Source of the DNA: Dehalococcoidia bacterium
GTDB taxonomy: Bacteria; Chloroflexota; Dehalococcoidia; Lucifugimonadales; UBA3495
DNA length: 64,000 nt
Direction of reading: 5' to 3'
NCBI GenBank assembly: GCA_965116785.1
Contig: OZ220731.1
Location: forward strand, 3,619,922 to 3,683,921
Under the pieces are notes generated by a model. That model had not been told where the DNA came from. It ran no database searches and saw nothing but the letters and a program-made list of their open reading frames with translations. Made by a program: the position numbers and the translations under genes. Shown one piece after another: positions 7,172 through 34,773 of this stretch (position 1 is its first letter; every line of letters begins with the position of its first letter).

Positions 7172-9118
7172 TCATAGCGGATAACCTGAGTCCGCCCAGT
7201 CATGTCCAGAAATTCCGTTGGGGGCCTCGGGCCCCAGTTCTCCTATGAACTGGCTTGCACGCACGTTCACCAAGCCGATACCACTGCCCGTTGATAAAGC
7301 CCCGATCTGATGAGCCATGTCTGCTTGCATGCGGATAGCGGATGAAAGCACTAGGATCTCTGTGTTTCTGGTGATTGCTACGTAGAAAAGCCGACGCTGC
7401 TCCTCCAGCGAAGCTACTTGTTCTATCTCAGTAACGTCTCGGTCAAGAGTGGGAATGAGACCTTGGATGCAACCGGCGACAATGGCAACTTTGCTGGTCA
7501 GCCCTTTAGCCTTGTGCAAACTCATCACTCGCACGAAGGCGCTCTCCTCCGGGATTTCCGGTTGTGTGATCACTGTCTTAATTTTGGAGTGTACGTCGCC
7601 TATATTTTCAGATTCGAGCAGAACATGCATCGCCGCTTGACGGAGGACGTGCAGTTCATCCTGTCCATCTGGGATGACGTAGTCTACGACACCCGCGATA
7701 TCCATTCCGTCAGTTTGGCCCAAAACACGTAACAGTTCGCGGTATTTCTTGGTCAGTCGTGAAACGCCCTGCATGCGCAAAGTTCCAGCAATTATGGCGT
7801 CCAAAGCTTCCCTGGGTGATGACCCGGTTGCGACACAGTGATCACGCAGCTTTTTGTACTGGCCGGCCAGGCCATTTTGGCTTCCCTCGCCCAACCACCA
7901 ACGTAATGCTACTCTGTCATCGGGATTAGCTATCAGCGTGAGGATTGCGAATGCGCGCTGCGCCTCGATCGCCTCCAGCGGCTCTTCGGCGAAGAAACTG
8001 TGCACCGGGATATTGGCTTCACGGATGCGGTCCCTGATTCCATAGCCCAGGAGCCTTCGTGGAGTCATGATTAAAATGTCACCCGCCGCGTAGTCCCGCG
8101 CTAGCAAACATTGGACAAATCCGGCTAGCCCTGCAGCCTCGCTCTCTACATCGCGCCATTGGGTTATGCGAACCAGACCCTCGGCGTTTTGAGGCCTAGG
8201 TTGCAACCGGGATTCCCGCGTCGCAGGGTGGTTGCGACGAATCAATTCGTCAGCAATCCTGACCACTCGCTGCGGACACCGCCTGCACTCATCAAGGGTC
8301 TGATCGTACGTAGATGGGTGGATCTCTGCGAAATCTCTGATCCCAGAAGGGTTCGCGTATCTGAAGCTATAAATCGATTGGTCTTCGTCACCAACAATTG
8401 AAAGCATTCCGTTGCTGGCCAGTAAATCGATCAACGTTTGTTCTGCTTTGTTTAGATCCTGATATTCATCGACGATCACATGATCGAAAGACGTAAGGAC
8501 GTCTGAGGCCGGGTTATTGCGCAAGAAACGCAGCGTCTCTGGCACCAGTTCACCTATCAACATCGCCCGGTGGAACCGGAGCCAACCTACCAAGGACTGC
8601 TCAAATTCCCAGTCGATCTCTTCCTGTGCCCAACCCGGAACGTCGGCTTGCAATCGTGCCCAAGCCGCTTCGAATGCGCGTATCCTTTTGGTGCATTCCC
8701 TTCTGGTCCCGAATTGTTTGCCCAAGACCAGGTCATTCAGAAGTGGTGCTCCTTCAAATTGTAGGACACCGCTCTTGTTGAACGTCACCAGTGGTCGCGC
8801 GACTCGGTCAAGGTAGCTGAACACGTCCTCCCGGTTGAGAATGCTGAAACATAACGAATGTAGTGTACCAGCGCGGATTTTTTCACAATTTTCGATTTCG
8901 AGTGCATGGAGGTCTGCGACCAAACTTGCAGCCGCGTTTCGCGTAAACGTTACCGCGAGTATTCGACTTGGGTCTTGGCCTTCTTCCAACAGCCTGGCCA
9001 CCCGCCGCTTCATAGCGAAGGACTTGCCAGTCCCGGGACCAGCCATAACCCGAAGTGGCGTTTCTTCTGTTCTGGCGATCTCCAACGCGGTGCCCGTAAG
9101 ATTGTCATACCAACTCAT
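7172..9118 (-). CDS. UvrD/Rep-family (SF1) DNA helicase, stand-alone, in an AT-richer islet
   Basis: Walker A AGPGTGKS, motif Ia VTFTRNAA, DEYQD (motif II), VGDEDQSIYSFR (III), and SLHKAKGL / YVAITRNTEIL (V/VI). Start taken at MSWYDN (9118); the upstream ATG at 9175 is also possible. Confidence 0.85.
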   Translation of the reverse strand: MSWYDNLTGTALEIARTEETPLRVMAGPGTGKSFAMKRRVARLLEEGQDPSRILAVTFTRNAAASLVADLHALEIENCEKIRAGTLHSLCFSILNREDVFSYLDRVARPLVTFNKSGVLQFEGAPLLNDLVLGKQFGTRRECTKRIRAFEAAWARLQADVPGWAQEEIDWEFEQSLVGWLRFHRAMLIGELVPETLRFLRNNPASDVLTSFDHVIVDEYQDLNKAEQTLIDLLASNGMLSIVGDEDQSIYSFRYANPSGIRDFAEIHPSTYDQTLDECRRCPQRVVRIADELIRRNHPATRESRLQPRPQNAEGLVRITQWRDVESEAAGLAGFVQCLLARDYAAGDILIMTPRRLLGYGIRDRIREANIPVHSFFAEEPLEAIEAQRAFAILTLIANPDDRVALRWWLGEGSQNGLAGQYKKLRDHCVATGSSPREALDAIIAGTLRMQGVSRLTKKYRELLRVLGQTDGMDIAGVVDYVIPDGQDELHVLRQAAMHVLLESENIGDVHSKIKTVITQPEIPEESAFVRVMSLHKAKGLTSKVAIVAGCIQGLIPTLDRDVTEIEQVASLEEQRRLFYVAITRNTEILVLSSAIRMQADMAHQIGALSTGSGIGLVNVRASQFIGELGPEAPNGISGHDWADSGYPL

Positions 9119-9257: not shown

Positions 9258-11750
9258 CTACACCACCCCCGCCAACTCCGCCTCCCGCTCGCCTTCCGCC
9301 CCGGCGCTGCCCGGAACCCGCAGCGCCAGCCCGTCCCCAGCCTCGTTCACGTCGGCGATGATGTGGTCCCCCTCCTTGAACTCGCCCGACAGCACGCCCC
9401 GCGATAGCTGGTTCTCGAGGTGCCGCTGGATGGCGCGGCGCAGCGGACGCGCCCCGTAGGTCACGTTGAACCCCTCGTTCACCAGCCAGTCGCAGCCGGC
9501 CTCCTTCAGCTCGCAGGTGATGTCCCGCTCCGCCAGCCGCTTCTGAACCTCGCCCACCATCAGCCCGACGATCTCGCCGATCTGCGCCCGGCTGAGCGGG
9601 TGGAACACGATGGTCTCATCGATGCGGTTCAGCAGCTCCGGCCGGAACGCCCGCTGCAATGCGTCCCGCACCGAGCGCGCCAGCTCCGGCGTCACCTTCC
9701 CGGCCTCCTGCTCGCGGTCGGCGGTGGGGCCAAGCCCGAAGGGCCGCTGCGACAGGTCCCCCGTGCCCAGGTTGCTGGTCATGATGATCACCGTGTTCCG
9801 GAAGTCCACCGTGCGTCCCTGCCCGTCGGTCAGACGCCCGTCCTCCAGGATCTGCAGCAGCAGGTTGAACACGTCCGGGTGCGCCTTCTCGATCTCGTCG
9901 AACAGGATGACCCGGTGGGGTCGCCGCCGCACCGCCTCGGTGAGCTGGCCGGCGTCGTCGTACCCCACGTAGCCGGGAGGCGCGCCGATCAGGCGCGACA
10001 CCGTGTGCCGCTCGCCGTACTCCGACATGTCGAGGCGCACCATGCTGTCCTCGTCGTTGAACAGGAACTCCGCCAGCGCCCGGCTCAGCTCCGTCTTGCC
10101 CACGCCCGTGGGACCCAGGAAGATGAAACTGCCGAAGGGCCGCTTGGGGTCGTTGAGACCCGACCGCGCCCGGCGGATGGTGTCCGCCACCGCGCTGATG
10201 GCCTCGTCCTGCCCGATGACCCGCCGGTGCAGGTGCTCCTCCATGTGCAGCAGCCGCTCCGCCTCGCCCTCCATCAACTGGCCCACCGGGATGCCCGTCC
10301 AGTTGGATACCAGCTCGGCGATGTCCTTCTCATTGACCACCAGGTCAGGCCCCGTGGTGTGCTCGATGGCCTCGTGCTCGGCGCTCAGCTCGCTCTCCAG
10401 GCGCAGCCGCTCCGTGCGGTGCTGTGCCGCCCGCTCGTAGTCGGACATCTGGTTGGCCCGCTCCTCCAGGTCGGTCAGCTCCCGCCGCCGGTTCTCCATC
10501 TCCTGCAATTTGGGCGGCAGCATCCCGGCGTCGATGCGCACCTTGCTGCCCGCCTCGTCGATGAAGTCGATGGCCTTGTCCGGCAGCTTGCGGTCGGTGA
10601 TGTACCGGTCGCTCAGCCGAACCGCCGCCTCGATGGCCCCGTCGGTCAGCGTAACCTTGTGGTGGGCCTCGTAGCGGGGCTTGAGCGCGTGCAGGATTTC
10701 CAGCGCCTGCTCCGGCGTCGGCTCCTCCACGTACACCGGCTGGAACCGCCGCGCCAGCGCCGGGTCCCGCTCGATGTGCTTGCGGTACTCGTCCAGCGTC
10801 GTCGAGCCGATGGCCTGCAGCTCGCCTCGGGCCAGCGCCGGCTTGAGCATGTTGCTGGCATCCAGCCCGCCCTCGCCGGCGCCGGCGCCCACCAGTGTGT
10901 GCATCTCGTCCAGGAAGACGATCACTTCGCCGTTGGACGACGTCACCTCGTCGATCACCGACTTGAGCCGTTCCTCGAACTCGCCGCGGAACTTGGCGCC
11001 GGCTACCAGCCGGCCCATGTCCAGCGCCATCACCCGCTTGTTGTGCAGGGAGTCGGGCACGTCGTCGCAGATGATCTTGCTGGCCAGACCCTCGGCGATG
11101 GCCGTCTTGCCCACGCCGGCCTCGCCGATGAGTACCGGGTTGTTTTTGGTGCGGCGGGTCAGCGTCTGCATGACCTGGCGGATCTCCTGCTCGCGACCGA
11201 CCACCGGGTCCAGCTTGCCGATGCGGGCCAGCTCGGTCAGGTCCACGCTGTACTTTTCCAGTGAGCGGTACTTCTGCTCCGCGTCCTGGTCCTCCACCCG
11301 GTGCGAGCCGCGCAGCTTCTGCATGGCCTGGTACACCATCTCCTGGTTGACGCCCAGCTCCCGGAACAGCCGCGCCGAGTCGCCGGCGTCCTCCCGGGCG
11401 GCGGCCACCAGCAGGTGCTCCACGCTGATGAACTGGTCCTTCAGCCGCTGCGCCTCCTCGTCGGCCAGCTGCAGCATCCGCTGCAACCGGGGCGTGATGA
11501 AGATCTGCTGCGTGCCCGACACCACCTTCGGCGCCGAGTCCAGCGTCTGGTGCAGCCGGCTCTTCACCAGCTCGGCGTCAACGCCCAGCTCCCGGAAGAT
11601 GCGCTCCGGCAGCCCATCCTCCAGCGCCACCAGGGCCAGCAGCACGTGCTCCACGTCCCACTGGCTGTGCTGGTAGTTGCGCACCAGCTCCTGGGAGCGT
11701 TGCAACGCCTCCTGCGCCTGTCTCGTGAACTTGTCCGCGGTCATCACCAT
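9258..11750 (-). CDS. clpB: ATP-dependent chaperone ClpB
   Basis: 830-aa ORF with a Clp N-domain, two AAA+ modules ([15 protein letters not shown] and [15 protein letters not shown]), a long coiled-coil middle domain, and a C-terminal D2-small domain with [10 protein letters not shown]. Confidence 0.97.
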
Positions 11751-27854: not shown

Positions 27855-28412
27855 TCAGGTATCGAAAATATCTCGGACCGCGCAACTGAAGCCAGGCAGG
27901 ATTTCGCCGCAGTCCAAGGCATCGTCCTCGTTGAGCGTTCTCGCGGATCCTTCGGCAGGCAGGACGAGTATGGTCCGGGTGTTTGGATAGACGACCAGAA
28001 CCAGGCGAACGCCGTGCCGCAGCCACATTTGCGCCTTGTCGTATATCGCTGCCGTTTGATCCCCTGGTGAGGCGATTTCAACCACCAGATCGGGCACCAC
28101 TTCGGCATATCCGCTAACCCGCTGGTCCAGCGGGATGCGTTCCGCCGAAATAAACGCGATATCGGGCTCACGCACTGTATCGGGATTTCGTTCCAGACGT
28201 ATTCCGGCATCGGAACCCACTACGCGACCCAAACGGCGCGGCCGGACGAACGCCCGAAGCTCGGCGGCAAAGTTGATTACGATTTCGCCGTGTTCAATTC
28301 CGGCAGCCACTGTTTTGTACAGGACCCCCCTGATCAATTCGCCGCGCACTCCGTGGGCATACAACTCCAGGAGGTCATTGGCAGTAAGCAGTTTTTCTGA
28401 TGTGGTGGTCAT
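27855..28412 (-). CDS. Uma2-family (DUF820) putative endonuclease
   Basis: GELIRGVLY....AGIEHGEI, REPDIAFIS, VPDLVVEIASPGD......KAQMWL.HGVRLVLVV: the Uma2 D...E.S pattern. Confidence 0.8.
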   Translation of the reverse strand: MTTTSEKLLTANDLLELYAHGVRGELIRGVLYKTVAAGIEHGEIVINFAAELRAFVRPRRLGRVVGSDAGIRLERNPDTVREPDIAFISAERIPLDQRVSGYAEVVPDLVVEIASPGDQTAAIYDKAQMWLRHGVRLVLVVYPNTRTILVLPAEGSARTLNEDDALDCGEILPGFSCAVRDIFDT

Positions 28413-28453
28413 GGCGCGTTCTGTGGGAGCATGGAAAGCGCAGGCGATTTTAG

Positions 28454-28639
28454 TCAGCGGGAGCGCTGCCCAGCCGCAGCTTCCCGCTGCGCCTTTTCGA
28501 GTCTGGCCACGGCCCAATCAGACAGTTCCAACCCTCGGTCAGGGTCGTCCAGCATTTCGGTGACGACCTCGGTGACGGTTTCGCGGATCAGCGCGCGGAG
28601 CTCGTCGACGGTGAGTTCGGCAACTGTCTGGGCGGCCAT
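28454..28639 (-). CDS. Small hypothetical protein upstream of Uma2 gene
   Basis: 61 aa from MAAQTVAELTVDELRALIRETVTEVVTEMLDDPDRGLELSDWAVARLEKAQ; helical and acidic. It is co-oriented with the Uma2 gene, 41 nt upstream. Confidence 0.4.
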   Translation of the reverse strand: MAAQTVAELTVDELRALIRETVTEVVTEMLDDPDRGLELSDWAVARLEKAQREAAAGQRSR

Positions 28640-28731
28640 GGTTCCTCCGGTCGAGGGCAATTGCGACGGCGCGGCGTTTGGGTCAGCGGAACGTGAGTGA
28701 GTCTATCACTCGGTATTTGCGCACGGCAAAC

Positions 28732-30935: not shown

Positions 30936-31003
30936 ATCGATCAGTCGATCCCCATGTGTAAATTCAAAATAATATGAGCTTTAGCGACAGTCATGTTGGC
31001 GTT

Positions 31004-31471
31004 TCAGAAGCCGAGCAGGGCCCTGATGCAACCAAACTTCCAGACCAGCGCAATCGCGATGACCAGCATCAAGTAAAACGGCCAAACCGCCGTTGAGCGC
31101 AGACTCGCCAGCAGTTGCTTGTTGACCGCTCCGACCGGACGCATCACGTACAGATCCGGCAAGGCTATCCCGCCGTCGCTATGGAGTTTGCGGACAAAGG
31201 CGTTGTACGAATTGCGAAAGACTTGCTCCAACGCCAGGTAGTAGGCGTCCAGAAACAGGAACAGTAGCGTCGGCAGAAGGGCCAGCAGAGCGTAATCGAT
31301 CGTGTCGGTTCGGGCCACGAGAACCAGGATGGCGGCCACCAGCACGATGCACCAGTTCTTGCACGACGCGCTGTTGCCGGCCATGCGCCGGATGACGTCC
31401 TGCAGGATGGTCAGGTGCGTGCGAACCGCCTCGGAATTGGCGTCGTATGGCTTTGCGTCGGCATCGGCCAT
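31004..31471 (-). CDS. Small three-helix membrane protein, candidate effector partner of the TIR-like protein
   Basis: Start MADADAK (31471) lies 5 nt after the TIR gene stop. A cytosolic helix (SEAVRTHLTILQDVIRRMAGNSASCKNW) is followed by hydrophobic helices CIVLVAAILVLVA, ALLALLPTLLFLFLDAYYLAL and VWPFYLMLVIAIALVWKF. About 50% G+C. Confidence 0.6.
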   Translation of the reverse strand: MADADAKPYDANSEAVRTHLTILQDVIRRMAGNSASCKNWCIVLVAAILVLVARTDTIDYALLALLPTLLFLFLDAYYLALEQVFRNSYNAFVRKLHSDGGIALPDLYVMRPVGAVNKQLLASLRSTAVWPFYLMLVIAIALVWKFGCIRALLGF

Positions 31472-31476
31472 GGGAA

Positions 31477-31986
31477 TCACTGGAATTGGCGGCGTATCTG
31501 TATCGCTTCCTCTACCCAAGCCTGCAAATTGTTTGTGATGGTTGCGTATGCGCGTTGGCTATCGCTGGATGCCGGGTTATAGTCTTTCAAGACACTCGAT
31601 AATGGCTTTTTTGTGTCGGTAAAGACCACTGCGTCGAACGGGTTTTTGCCGGGCAACTCCTGCCGCCCGAAGCGGTCTTTAAGATTGTGGATATAAATCC
31701 CCACGACACCCTTTCCGTCATTCCACGATTTTGTTATTTCGTACTGAACCCATTTGCGCCCGGCCGTTTCGCTGCCAATCAAAACGACCGTGCAAGATCT
31801 GGTGTTGATCTGTTGGTCGATCCACCGTTGGATAGCGGCCTCTCCTCCTCTTTTGATGGTTTCCCAATTGTTGTCGGTGACGGGTTCGTTGCCTTCCAAT
31901 ATGCCAGCGTTTCTAATCTGTGCCGCACGCCATGCGTCTTTTTCGTAATGAAAACTGAAAAACACTCTGCGCTTTGGTGAAGCCAA
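31477..31986 (-). CDS. TIR-like domain protein (DUF1863 / Thoeris ThsB type)
   Basis: TTG start follows AAGGA. RRVFFSFHYEKD, IKRGGEAAIQRWIDQQINTRSCTVVLIGSETAGRKWVQYEI (candidate catalytic Glu in WVQYEI) and GKGVVGIYIHNL match the MTH538/ThsB TIR-like family pattern. Confidence 0.8.
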   Translation of the reverse strand: MASPKRRVFFSFHYEKDAWRAAQIRNAGILEGNEPVTDNNWETIKRGGEAAIQRWIDQQINTRSCTVVLIGSETAGRKWVQYEITKSWNDGKGVVGIYIHNLKDRFGRQELPGKNPFDAVVFTDTKKPLSSVLKDYNPASSDSQRAYATITNNLQAWVEEAIQIRRQFQ

Positions 31987-32043
31987 TTATCGATCCTTTG
32001 TGCCTTGTACGAATATTGATCCGACCAATATTTTAGCATCAGA

Positions 32044-33357
32044 CTACGCCGTCGGCTCCCGCTCCCGGCCGGGGATGGCCAGCGAGGCCAGGAAGCCCAC
32101 GCCGTAGATGCCGCCGGCGATGAAGAAGCCGTACTGCCAGCCCAGCCACTCGATGGGGCCGAAGATGAACACGGCGGCGACGGCCCCGAACAGGACGTTG
32201 TTGCCCCACATCAGGCCGAGGAAGCTGGACTCCAGACGGTAGCGCGCGGCGACGTCCGCAGCGGCCGCCGAGGTGAGGTTGATCACCGTGAAATGCTGCA
32301 ATCCGTAGAGCGCCACACAAACCGTTATCCAAACGGAGTATTGCGGGCCGCCCAGGGGGATGGCCAGGGTCAACACCGTGGCAAAGGCCATCAGGAACAC
32401 GATGAGCGGCTTGCGTCCCACTCGGTCGGACATCGCGCCGAGCAGGGGAGCGGTGACCATCGCCGGCCCCACCATCAGCGCCAGGTGGGCCGAGGCCTGA
32501 AACGTGTTGATGCCCAGGGCGTGGGTCAGGTACAGCGGCACGAGGAACAGCATGGACCCATCGGCCATGCCGCGCACCGCCGCCACAACAAAGATGGCCC
32601 ACAGCCGAGTCCCGCGGAAGGCCACATAGGTGCCTCGCCACATGGTGGTGAGCCGCTGTCCCAGGTCAACGTTCACCGGGGGCGCGCCGCCGGCGTGGCG
32701 GAGCAGACCGTAGATGACGAAGGTGGCGACGAACATGATCGGCGCGCCGAAAGCCAGGATCCACCGCCAGCTGACCGGCTCAAGGCCCAGCTCCCAACCG
32801 ACGGCCAGACCGTCGGCGGCCTCCCAGCGCAGGGCTCCGAGCAGCAGGATGCCGGCGATCATCGGGCCGACCACGTCGCCGACGCTGCCGGTGGAGCGGT
32901 GCATCGACAGGAACAGGCCCCGGCGGTTGGGGAAACGCTGGGCCAGCAGACCCAGGGCCGGCGGATGCCACAACGCCGCGCCGGAGGACGCCAGCGCCAA
33001 CGCCAGCAGGATCACCCCGTAGGACGGCGAAATTGCGATGAGCAGCAGGCCCACCGCGGTGAGCAGGGCGCTGATGGACAGTACCCAGGCGATCCGATGG
33101 TGGAGCAGGTCGGACAGGAACCCGCCGGTGACGCTGGTGATGCCGGCCGAGGCCGAGCGCACGGCCACGATGGCCCCCACCTGGAGCGCGCCGAGGCCGA
33201 GGTCGACCGCCATGACCGTGGTCAGCAGCGGGATGCTGTTGGAGATGAGATGTTCGAAGCCGTGGGCTCCGATGAGGGTCGACGCCAGAACCCGATTGCC
33301 GGTGCGGCGTTCACCCGTCACCGGCGCATCGGGAAGCGTCCCCTGCGCTGCGGCCAA
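32044..33357 (-). CDS. MFS transporter
   Basis: 437 aa, about 12 TM helices, D-R-x-G-R-K/R loop (MSDRVGRKPL). It is a close paralogue of the adjacent upstream gene. Confidence 0.85.
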   Translation of the reverse strand: MAAAQGTLPDAPVTGERRTGNRVLASTLIGAHGFEHLISNSIPLLTTVMAVDLGLGALQVGAIVAVRSASAGITSVTGGFLSDLLHHRIAWVLSISALLTAVGLLLIAISPSYGVILLALALASSGAALWHPPALGLLAQRFPNRRGLFLSMHRSTGSVGDVVGPMIAGILLLGALRWEAADGLAVGWELGLEPVSWRWILAFGAPIMFVATFVIYGLLRHAGGAPPVNVDLGQRLTTMWRGTYVAFRGTRLWAIFVVAAVRGMADGSMLFLVPLYLTHALGINTFQASAHLALMVGPAMVTAPLLGAMSDRVGRKPLIVFLMAFATVLTLAIPLGGPQYSVWITVCVALYGLQHFTVINLTSAAAADVAARYRLESSFLGLMWGNNVLFGAVAAVFIFGPIEWLGWQYGFFIAGGIYGVGFLASLAIPGREREPTA

Positions 33358-33375: not shown

Positions 33376-34773
33376 CTAGGCCGAAACCCGCGCCGCCTCG
33401 CTTTGGGGGACTGCAGCCGCATCGGCGGGAGCGTCCTGTGCCGGCACGGTCTCGGGTGCCGTGGGCTTGCCCGGGATCAACAGCGAGATGAGGAAGCCCG
33501 CGAAGTAGATGCCGGCGGCGATGAAGAAGCCGTACTGCCAGTCCAACCATTCCACCGGCCCGAAGATCATGAATGCGGCGATGGCGCCGAACAGGGTGTT
33601 GTTGCCCCACATCAGTCCGAGGAAACTGGACTCCAGCCGACGGCCGGCGGCGATGTCGGCGGCGGCGGCCTGGGTCAGGTTGTTCACTGAGAAGTTCATC
33701 ATGCCGTAGATGGCGACGAAGACGGTGATCCACGCCGTGTAGCCTCCGCCGCTCACCAGGATGATCGCGATGGTGAGCATCGTGGTGACGCCCATGATGA
33801 AGATGATCAGCGGGCGTCGCCCGATGCGGTCGGACAGAGAGCCGATGATCGGGCCGAAGAGGATGCCCGGGAGCACCATGAGCATGACGTGGACGGCGGC
33901 CTGGAACTCACCGACGCCCAGATGGATCAGGTACAACGGGACCAGGAACACCAGGGAGCGGTCGGCCATGCCGCGGACGGCGGAAACGGTGAAGATGGCC
34001 CACATGCCGGTGCCGCGGAAGGCGTCCTTCATGCCCGCCCAATTGGTGCGGATGCGGGCGCCGACGTCCACGTTAACGGGTCGCTCGCTGCCCGCGTTGC
34101 GCAGCAGGATGAAGATCACCACGGTGGCGACGAACATGATCGGGGTGCTGAACCCCAGGATGTACCGCCAGTCGACGGTGCCCCAGGGGAGCGCCCATGA
34201 GACGCCCACCTCGGCGCCATCGGCCCCGCCGCTCCAGGTGAGGGCGCCGGCGATGAGGGCGCCGGCGGCCAGCGGGCCGATGACGTCGCCGATGCTGCCG
34301 GTGGAGCGGTGCATGGAGATGAAGAGGCCGCGTCGCTCGGGGAAGCGCCGGGCGAGCAGGCCCAGGGCCGGCGGGTGCCACAACGCAGAGCCCATGGACC
34401 CCAGGGCGATGGCACACAGGATCAGGGCGTAGGATGGCGCGATGGACATGAGCAGGTAGCCCAAACCGATCATGAACGTGCTGATGGACAGCACCAGGGC
34501 CACTCGATGGTGGAACAGGTCAACCAGGAATCCGCCGGCGGTGCTGGTGATGCCGCCGAAGATGGAGCGGATGGCAACCACCGCGCCGACGCTGAGCGCG
34601 CCCAGCTCAAACTCGGTGATGATGGCCAGGATGATGATGGGGATGCTGTGGGCGTACAGGTGCTCGAAGGCATGGGCGCCCACCAGGGTGGTCGCCATCA
34701 CGGAGCCCTTGGTGCGGGGCTGCGTGTCCTGCGTCGCGGGTTGGGAAGGACTGACGCCGGCTGCCTGTGCCAT
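33376..34773 (-). CDS. MFS transporter (tandem paralogue)
   Basis: 465 aa. It shares long blocks with 32044-33357 (LESSFLGLMWGNN.LFGA.AA..IFGP.EWL.WQYGFFIA.GIY, LSDRIGRRPL). Confidence 0.85.
   Translation of the reverse strand: MAQAAGVSPSQPATQDTQPRTKGSVMATTLVGAHAFEHLYAHSIPIIILAIITEFELGALSVGAVVAIRSIFGGITSTAGGFLVDLFHHRVALVLSISTFMIGLGYLLMSIAPSYALILCAIALGSMGSALWHPPALGLLARRFPERRGLFISMHRSTGSIGDVIGPLAAGALIAGALTWSGGADGAEVGVSWALPWGTVDWRYILGFSTPIMFVATVVIFILLRNAGSERPVNVDVGARIRTNWAGMKDAFRGTGMWAIFTVSAVRGMADRSLVFLVPLYLIHLGVGEFQAAVHVMLMVLPGILFGPIIGSLSDRIGRRPLIIFIMGVTTMLTIAIILVSGGGYTAWITVFVAIYGMMNFSVNNLTQAAAADIAAGRRLESSFLGLMWGNNTLFGAIAAFMIFGPVEWLDWQYGFFIAAGIYFAGFLISLLIPGKPTAPETVPAQDAPADAAAVPQSEAARVSA

Follow-up and report, generated by a model that had tools for sequence, protein, structure and literature searches.

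Two adjacent genes, thsB and thsF, encoding a Toll/interleukin-1 receptor (TIR) protein and a small, predicted three-helix membrane protein, lie in a 64,000-nt stretch of contig OZ220731.1 from an uncultured Dehalococcoidia bacterium (assembly GCA_965116785.1); this whole stretch is called the window, all coordinates are positions within it, and numbers such as L001 designate loci fetched from other genomes. Judged by sequence, the pair (ThsB plus ThsF) is in all likelihood a type V Thoeris anti-phage system because its membrane protein is homologous to the ThsF effector of an experimentally validated type V system. An earlier reading of the same DNA (the original prediction) had proposed a novel, uncharacterised module in which a TIR-derived signal acts on a small membrane effector. 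The homologous validated system does work in this manner, but the pair is no new defence system: it was catalogued by PADLOC in 2023, as candidate PDC-M50, and its kind was validated in late 2025, under the name of type V Thoeris.

Homology to the Validated Type V Effector

Eleven types of Thoeris have been described by Yirmiya et al. (bioRxiv 10.64898/2025.12.03.692087), of which type V associates a TIR protein with ThsF, a protein with three transmembrane (TM) segments annotated as DUF2270 by these authors. Defence was shown for the systems of Bacillus thuringiensis DAR 81934 and Bacillus sp. 1NLA3E; the type V TIR produces 3'-cyclic ADP-ribose (3'cADPR) only upon phage infection, added 3'cADPR has a toxic effect on cells that carry the type V system of B. 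thuringiensis, and the Tad1 sponge inhibits defence (bioRxiv 10.64898/2025.12.03.692087). In the same work, ThsF was modelled with AlphaFold3 as a homo-heptamer, a ring resembling a channel whose protomers have positively charged pockets between them.

A TIR 100% identical to the sequence in Table S1 of Yirmiya et al. served to locate the validated B. thuringiensis DAR 81934 system, and the validated ThsF was taken as the 141-aa gene immediately 3' of this TIR (L084:3773-4198). Plasmid relatives of the same TIR are found in contexts of type I or like type II, with no small membrane gene adjacent. Aligned to a profile of the window's ThsF family, the validated ThsF matches over its full length (hhalign probability 99.6%, E 1.4e-24, 123 columns), and the hidden Markov model (HMM) of this family gives it 95.1 bits, to be compared with a maximum of 11.1 bits among 2000 shuffles and with no score for the 242-aa membrane protein encoded next to thsF in the window. 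The homology is also apparent in a direct BLASTP comparison with the window's ThsF (E 2e-8, 36% identity over 83 aa), and both proteins share the motifs Q-x-V-I-x-R-M-A-x-N-S...K-x-W and P-x3-F-x2-L-D-x-[YF]-[YF]-L-x2-E-x2-F-R-x2-Y in their non-membrane parts.

In terms of nomenclature, both proteins of the window match the A and B models of PDC-M50 (PADLOC-DB v2.0.0) over their full length, ThsF to PDC-M50A (E 8e-29; residues 16-144 on model positions 5-129 of 134) and ThsB to PDC-M50B (E 6.2e-66; residues 5-165 on model positions 2-159 of 162); the pair was thus already catalogued, although PDC-M50 is a computational candidate only. As the validated ThsF also matches the PDC-M50A models (E 1.8e-48), and the same PADLOC models hence recognize both effectors, we infer that PDC-M50 corresponds to type V Thoeris. 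A full-text literature search returned no paper naming PDC-M50, and the main text of the PADLOC 'embedded defences' preprint does not carry the name.

Like type V Thoeris, the pair in the window consists of a TIR gene and, in the same operon, the gene for a three-TM membrane effector of about 140-155 aa. It differs in that its ThsB is a canonical ThsB_TIR protein of 169 aa, whereas the B. thuringiensis ThsB has 252 aa and belongs to an unrelated TIR cluster, and in that its host has a high-GC, Dehalococcoidia-like genome in which the pair stands outside a defence island. The validated B. thuringiensis system, by comparison, directly adjoins a Gabija-like pair made of an OLD-family TOPRIM ATPase and a UvrD helicase (L084/L085, 4454-6759), a context that is a defence island. 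On the TIR side, the window's ThsB belongs to cluster 2661146773 of Table S1 of Yirmiya et al.; among the TIRs of this cluster listed with 'DUF2270 - Type V' effectors, three are 53-56% and two 44-46% identical to it, and they reach up to 69% identity with TIRs adjoining thsF in the fetched loci. A TIR of the second type in the type V set shares 86% identity with that of L023.

Several points weigh against the assignment to type V. One of the three type V systems tested gave no defence, and one of the validated systems was unresponsive to added 3'cADPR (bioRxiv 10.64898/2025.12.03.692087). The two validated type V ThsBs come from other TIR clusters than that of the window, and the experimental data on type V are from Bacillus, outside Chloroflexota and outside the ThsB clade of the window. 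The window's TIR cluster has HIT hydrolases among its partners too, in type XI Thoeris, and type XI TIRs gave no known signal (bioRxiv 10.64898/2025.12.03.692087). The neighbours of the pair are housekeeping genes, and related genomes retain thsF after loss of thsB (both described below). Finally, the window's ThsF has no match to PF10028 (DUF2270); however, the validated ThsF has none either at E<=0.01 by hmmscan, so that a search with this model does not discriminate and gives no ground for exclusion. PF10028 is found weakly in 15 of 37 close ThsF relatives (best E 0.009) and in 5 of 130 diverse ones (best E 0.0009). That hmmscan with PF10028 misses both the validated effector and the window's ThsF matters for annotation pipelines.

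The TIR Protein ThsB

The product of thsB matches Pfam PF08937 (ThsB_TIR; E 3.3e-28) and the PADLOC ThsB model PDLC00433 (E 5.4e-71), in agreement with the ThsB/DUF1863 TIR-like identity given to it by the original prediction, whose two quoted motifs, RRVFFSFHYEKD and SCTVVLIGSETAGRKWVQYEI, are both present in the open reading frame (ORF). Its solved relatives include PDB 8WCF (E 1.2e-45) and the Bacillus cereus ThsB structures 9B7D and 6LHY (E 3e-22); a literature search on 8WCF, the nearest solved TIR, found no relevant paper. The segment W-V-Q-Y-E-I aligns with R-W-V-R-Y-E-I of the solved relatives, and E83, the candidate catalytic residue pointed to earlier, falls on the glutamate of the B. 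cereus sequence RYEIMKS (9B7D/6LHY), a position that we take to be that of the TIR catalytic glutamate. E83 is invariant among all 44 TIR genes adjoining thsF homologues, and thsB evolves under purifying selection among orthologues, with a ratio of nonsynonymous to synonymous substitution rates (dN/dS) of 0.13. These comparisons support the identification of the first gene as a ThsB-type TIR retaining a candidate catalytic glutamate.

The Membrane Protein ThsF

Hydropathy places three hydrophobic helices of ThsF at about residues 39-54, 58-80 and 128-150 (mean hydrophobicity 0.62-0.64), preceded by an amphipathic helix at 13-30 (hydrophobic moment, muH, 0.61). From the N terminus, the resulting layout comprises the amphipathic helix, TM1 and TM2 as a hairpin, about 45 aa of net positive charge on the cytosolic side, and TM3. 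An AlphaFold2 model of the monomer (predicted local distance difference test, pLDDT, 83.6; predicted template modelling score, pTM, 0.72) agrees with this layout, its helices spanning residues 14-55, 58-98, 104-108, 116-125 and 130-153. The earlier description of a 155-aa partner with one amphipathic and three hydrophobic helices, encoded 5 nt after the TIR gene, was thereby reproduced, and the predicted topology is that of a type V effector with three membrane-spanning helices.

Two residues, R29 and K38, are invariant across 130 diverse relatives of ThsF; located at the cytosolic end of TM1, they are candidate signal-pocket residues, compatible with a charged pocket such as that of the published model. 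The gene is under purifying selection, with dN/dS about 0.22 across orthologues. ThsF has no match in Pfam (E<=1) or NCBIfam, and a Foldseek search of its AlphaFold2 model against the PDB gave nothing at E<=0.001, the top matches being generic helical bundles.

Comparison with other TIR-based systems sets the pair apart from each of them. With type I Thoeris (B. cereus MSX-D12), it shares the TIR subfamily PF08937 and the glutamate context RW-V-x-Y-E-I, the two ThsB proteins being 41% identical, but its effector is a 155-aa membrane protein without NADase domain. No ThsA, whether of the SIR2-SLOG or of the Macro plus TM kind, is encoded by the ten nearby genes scanned, and the partner carries no Pfam domain; the pair is neither type I nor type II. 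Type VII Thoeris (ThsH) and the SLATT effectors of CBASS are alike in concept, as a nucleotide messenger activates a small oligomerising membrane protein, but SLATT effectors have two TM segments, and ThsF has three and belongs to a different sequence family. A SLATT-type effector, as entertained by the original prediction, was accordingly discarded: ThsF has no SLATT match at E<=1, and a single one of 130 relatives matches SLATT_6 (E 0.0077). Type XI, in turn, combines ThsB with the HIT hydrolase ThsL; its TIRs, likewise members of cluster 2661146773, show 43% identity to the window's ThsB, but the effector is a soluble HIT hydrolase and not ThsF.

Layout, Composition and Candidate Expression Signals of the Pair

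The features of the pair are collected in Table 1. The start of thsF was placed at ATG 31471, in preference to the upstream TTG 31519 used by a mechanical ORF list, because 36 homologues begin at that same position. The 5-nt spacer between the two genes contains no Shine-Dalgarno sequence for thsF, which suggests translational coupling; thsF is thus probably translated by coupling to thsB. For thsB itself, the Shine-Dalgarno-like sequence is also kept in L007, L008 and L010, and the TTG start of the window is replaced by ATG in the orthologues L008 and L010.

Table 1. Features of the thsB-thsF pair in the window.
Feature	Position	Strand	Remarks	Basis
thsB	31477..31986	-	169-aa ThsB-type TIR (DUF1863/ThsB_TIR); TTG start	Pfam, PADLOC
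thsF	31004..31471	-	155-aa membrane effector (predicted); ATG at 31471	PADLOC, hhalign, AlphaFold2
Spacer, thsB stop to thsF start	31472..31476	-	5 nt (ttccc) after TGA	Sequence read
E83 codon	31738..31740	-	Candidate catalytic glutamate of ThsB (motif W-V-Q-Y-E-I)	Alignment
TGCTAAAAT	32030..32038	-	Extended -10-like box, candidate operon promoter	Conservation
AAGGA	31994..31998	-	Shine-Dalgarno-like, 7 nt 5' of thsB TTG	Sequence read
Spacer, thsF to 242-aa membrane-protein gene	30936..31003	-	40% G+C; cassette insertion site in sister genomes	Composition

The TGCTAAAAT box sits in the 57-nt gap that follows the stop codon of the preceding MFS transporter gene, and TGCTAnAAT is found at the same place in every orthologous locus examined, whether thsB is present or deleted. 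The operon is probably transcribed from this box, for which the conservation of TGCTAnAAT is the sole argument. A consensus promoter and terminator scan of the coding strand called no promoter and no terminator-like hairpin, including in the spacer after thsF; the box went uncalled because it has no -35 match.

The pair had been described as an AT-rich islet on the basis of hand counts that proved exact (50% G+C for 31561-31660 and 67% for 32101-32200). The dip in G+C is real but uneven: thsB has 50% G+C, with 0.58 at third codon positions (GC3), against 64% for the whole window, and two short intergenic stretches beside the pair have 37-40%, but thsF has 60% and a host-like GC3 of 0.80. The islet is no recent acquisition, for the reasons given below.

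Distribution and Synteny of the Family

ThsF belongs to a large family: close homologues number 458, a search of 1.84 billion representatives of 50%-identity clusters gives 4413 at E<=0.001, and the 185,579 species-representative genomes scanned hold 251 loci. Eighty loci were fetched for an analysis of synteny, of which 76 were not cut at the relevant edge. A ThsB-type TIR gene lies directly beside thsF and on the same strand in 53 of the 76 (upstream as in the window in 34, downstream in 9 and on both sides in 10), which bears out, across many phyla, the expectation that homologues of the two genes would be syntenic. The hosts include Chloroflexota, Latescibacterota, Desulfobacterota, Nitrospirota, Omnitrophota, Verrucomicrobiota, Planctomycetota and two archaea; ThsF homologues are also carried by Vibrio and cyanobacterial plasmids, the Vibrio one adjoining a TIR gene. 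Through direct homology to the validated effector, type V Thoeris is extended to uncultured Dehalococcoidia and to poorly sampled phyla, archaea included.

A three-gene variant, in which thsF is preceded by a small TIR (about 130-145 aa, FVSFEFDKD) and followed by a second TIR (about 190 aa, HKVFISFHEQD), is observed in L028, L032, L043, L061, L063, L065, L068, L069, L078 and L080 (at about 7500-9050); in L065 both genes flanking thsF match Pfam ThsB_TIR. Table S1 of Yirmiya et al., through consecutive IMG gene IDs, implies the same TIR-thsF-TIR order. In L039, a DUF1883-TIR fusion (PF08980 plus TIR_2; 9523-10320) is encoded about 1.1 kb 3' of an apparently orphan thsF, behind two toxin-antitoxin-like pairs, and could be an alternative TIR partner.

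History of the Locus and Persistence of Orphan thsF

About 21 loci are orthologous to that of the window, with flanks of 75-90% DNA identity and the gene order MFS, MFS, [thsB], thsF, 242-aa membrane protein, DinB-like gene. The same site is occupied in at least 20 species-level Dehalococcoidia genomes, at a synonymous divergence (dS) above 1, and the pair is therefore a long-standing resident and no recent arrival; a recently acquired AT-rich island was rejected on these grounds and because the GC3 of thsB is low throughout (0.50-0.59 in every orthologue; L007, L008, L010, L017, L044, L049 and L050 were compared). In most of them, thsF has drifted to a host-like GC3 of 0.8-0.88. This contrast within one operon lasts despite long vertical inheritance.

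In seven orthologues (L001, L002, L003, L005, L009, L016 and L020), thsB is replaced by an identical gap of 92-93 nt, at about 7900-8000 (orthologous to 31472-32043 of the window), in which the TGCTAnAAT box survives together with some 35 nt from the 3' end of thsB, encoding AWVEDAIRQR; this identity points to a single ancestral deletion of about 480 nt. Three further loci (L004, L013 and L014) have longer gaps, of 259-762 nt, and were counted, with junctions not aligned, as the same deletion followed by later insertions, because L014 keeps a thsB remnant of the same kind. Independent deletions of thsB are found in L011 and L012, and another thsB remnant occurs in the unrelated context of L031. 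Throughout the deletion clade of ten loci, thsF is intact (10/10) with a dN/dS of 0.21 (range 0.10-0.35), equal to that of loci with thsB; the bootstrap upper limits for orphan thsF are 0.18-0.38 in the five most divergent pairs. Decay in the reverse direction, with thsB intact, also occurs: thsF is frameshifted before TM3 in L044 (8001-8516) and is unrecognisable as an intact ORF in L049 (around 8000), where thsB persists.

The loss of thsB with retention of thsF in sister genomes shows that thsF can be of use, or can at any rate be tolerated, when its cognate sensor is gone, and the persistence of the orphan gene is the one mildly interesting point. Complete chromosomes with orphan thsF include OZ242308.1, OZ242004.1 and OX638345.1. 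A single orthologous site at which thsB plus thsF, thsF alone and a frameshifted or unrecognisable thsF are all represented offers a natural comparison for service in trans and for the decay of Thoeris.

This raises the question as to whether thsF is strictly tied to the adjacent thsB. It is possible, though rather unlikely, that it is not, and that ThsF is a shared effector on which other TIRs act in trans, or which responds to another nucleotide, perhaps from phage or metabolism, or has a TIR-independent role, and further that the window's ThsB addresses ThsF with a signal other than 3'cADPR. As the ThsB clade is common with that of type XI, whose TIRs have no known product, such another signal may act on ThsF.

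Another reading would make ThsF primarily a membrane protein of housekeeping or TIR-independent function in this Dehalococcoidia lineage, with an incidental or secondary adjacency to thsB; it is very improbable. Such a role would agree with the presence of at least ten orthologous loci with thsF and without thsB, in which the orphan gene is intact at a dN/dS of 0.21 and keeps its promoter-like box, and with a GC3 that is host-like in thsF (0.80) but not in thsB (0.58). The orphan state is, however, derived, as attested by the 3' remnant of thsB (AWVEDAIRQR) in the gap; beyond this clade TIR genes overwhelmingly adjoin the family, on one side (before or after it) or on both, and it matches the validated ThsF. 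TIRs elsewhere in the genomes concerned could, moreover, serve orphan effectors in trans.

Proposed Mechanism

By homology, ThsB would be a stand-alone TIR enzyme, relying on E83, that senses phage infection and converts nicotinamide adenine dinucleotide (NAD+) into an ADP-ribose-derived second messenger. This messenger would bind to ThsF, predicted in the literature as a ring-shaped homo-oligomer with positive pockets, which R29 and K38 would line in the window's protein. Activated ThsF would then disrupt the membrane, so that the infected cell dies or arrests before the release of progeny (abortive infection); by analogy, the small three-helix ThsF is most likely the component that kills or arrests the infected cell. 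Whether the signal of the window's ThsB clade is 3'cADPR is evenly poised: the ThsB of type I B. cereus, 41% identical to that of the window, makes 3'cADPR, and the type XI relatives mentioned above, with the validated type V system unresponsive to 3'cADPR, bear on the other side.

The roles could also be reversed, the TIR being the toxic, NAD+-depleting effector, as in CBASS, Pycsar and pAgo systems, and the membrane protein its sensor, anchor or regulator. This arrangement was raised by the authors of type V for unverified TIR configurations (bioRxiv 10.64898/2025.12.03.692087), and the window's ThsB clade is known here from its sequence alone. It is nonetheless very improbable. The TIR of the window is a bare 169-aa ThsB-type domain, nearest to ThsBs that are signal synthases; in the type V system of B. 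thuringiensis, the toxicity of exogenous 3'cADPR and the abolition of defence by a 3'cADPR sponge place the effector downstream of the signal; and the retention of thsF alone after the loss of thsB would be unexpected for a mere accessory of the TIR.

That the pair is a decaying, non-functional relic in this genome is hardly credible: relatives have lost thsB by deletion at least three times (the 93-nt-gap class; L011/L012; L031), thsF is frameshifted in L044 and unrecognisable as an intact ORF in L049, and the window's thsB begins with a weak TTG in place of the ATG of L008 and L010, but both ORFs of the window are full length with all conserved motifs, E83 included, and both genes are under purifying selection across orthologues.

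Genomic Neighbourhood

As originally described, the pair is flanked by a membrane-protein gene, of 242 aa, on one side and by two MFS genes on the other. The latter are tandem paralogues (32044-33357 and 33376-34773, reverse strand) with about 70% DNA identity and are paired in all orthologous loci. Ten nearby genes were scanned, the second MFS gene not being among them; they encode GNAT, Uma2, DUF7700, an MFS transporter, a solute-binding protein, PNPOx and an enolase-like protein, and three have no Pfam match; a DinB-like gene also counts among the neighbours scanned. PADLOC gave no match on these neighbours besides weak ones of Uma2 to the candidate PDC-S03, and HMM scans of the 64-kb window found a single TIR and a single ThsF. 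The neighbours are thus housekeeping genes and the pair lies outside a defence island; in the window's Dehalococcoidia clade it is a solitary system within a conserved housekeeping neighbourhood.

Between thsF and the gene for the 242-aa protein, two sister genomes carry PaREP1/HEPN-like cassettes (L001, 8546-10066; L002, 8400-10119), composed of two tandem pairs; in each, the PaREP1/HEPN-like gene (about 117 aa) comes after an unknown gene (about 122 aa). In view of these insertions, the spacer after thsF (about 30936-31003 in the window) looks like a small variable hotspot for toxin-antitoxin-like elements. About 3 kb from the Thoeris pair, a gene for a putative endonuclease of the Uma2 family (27855-28517, reverse strand; PF05685, 4e-30; PDC-S03, 8e-15) is overlapped at its 5' end by an ORF of 68 aa on the same strand (28454-28660), with which it may form a small two-gene module.

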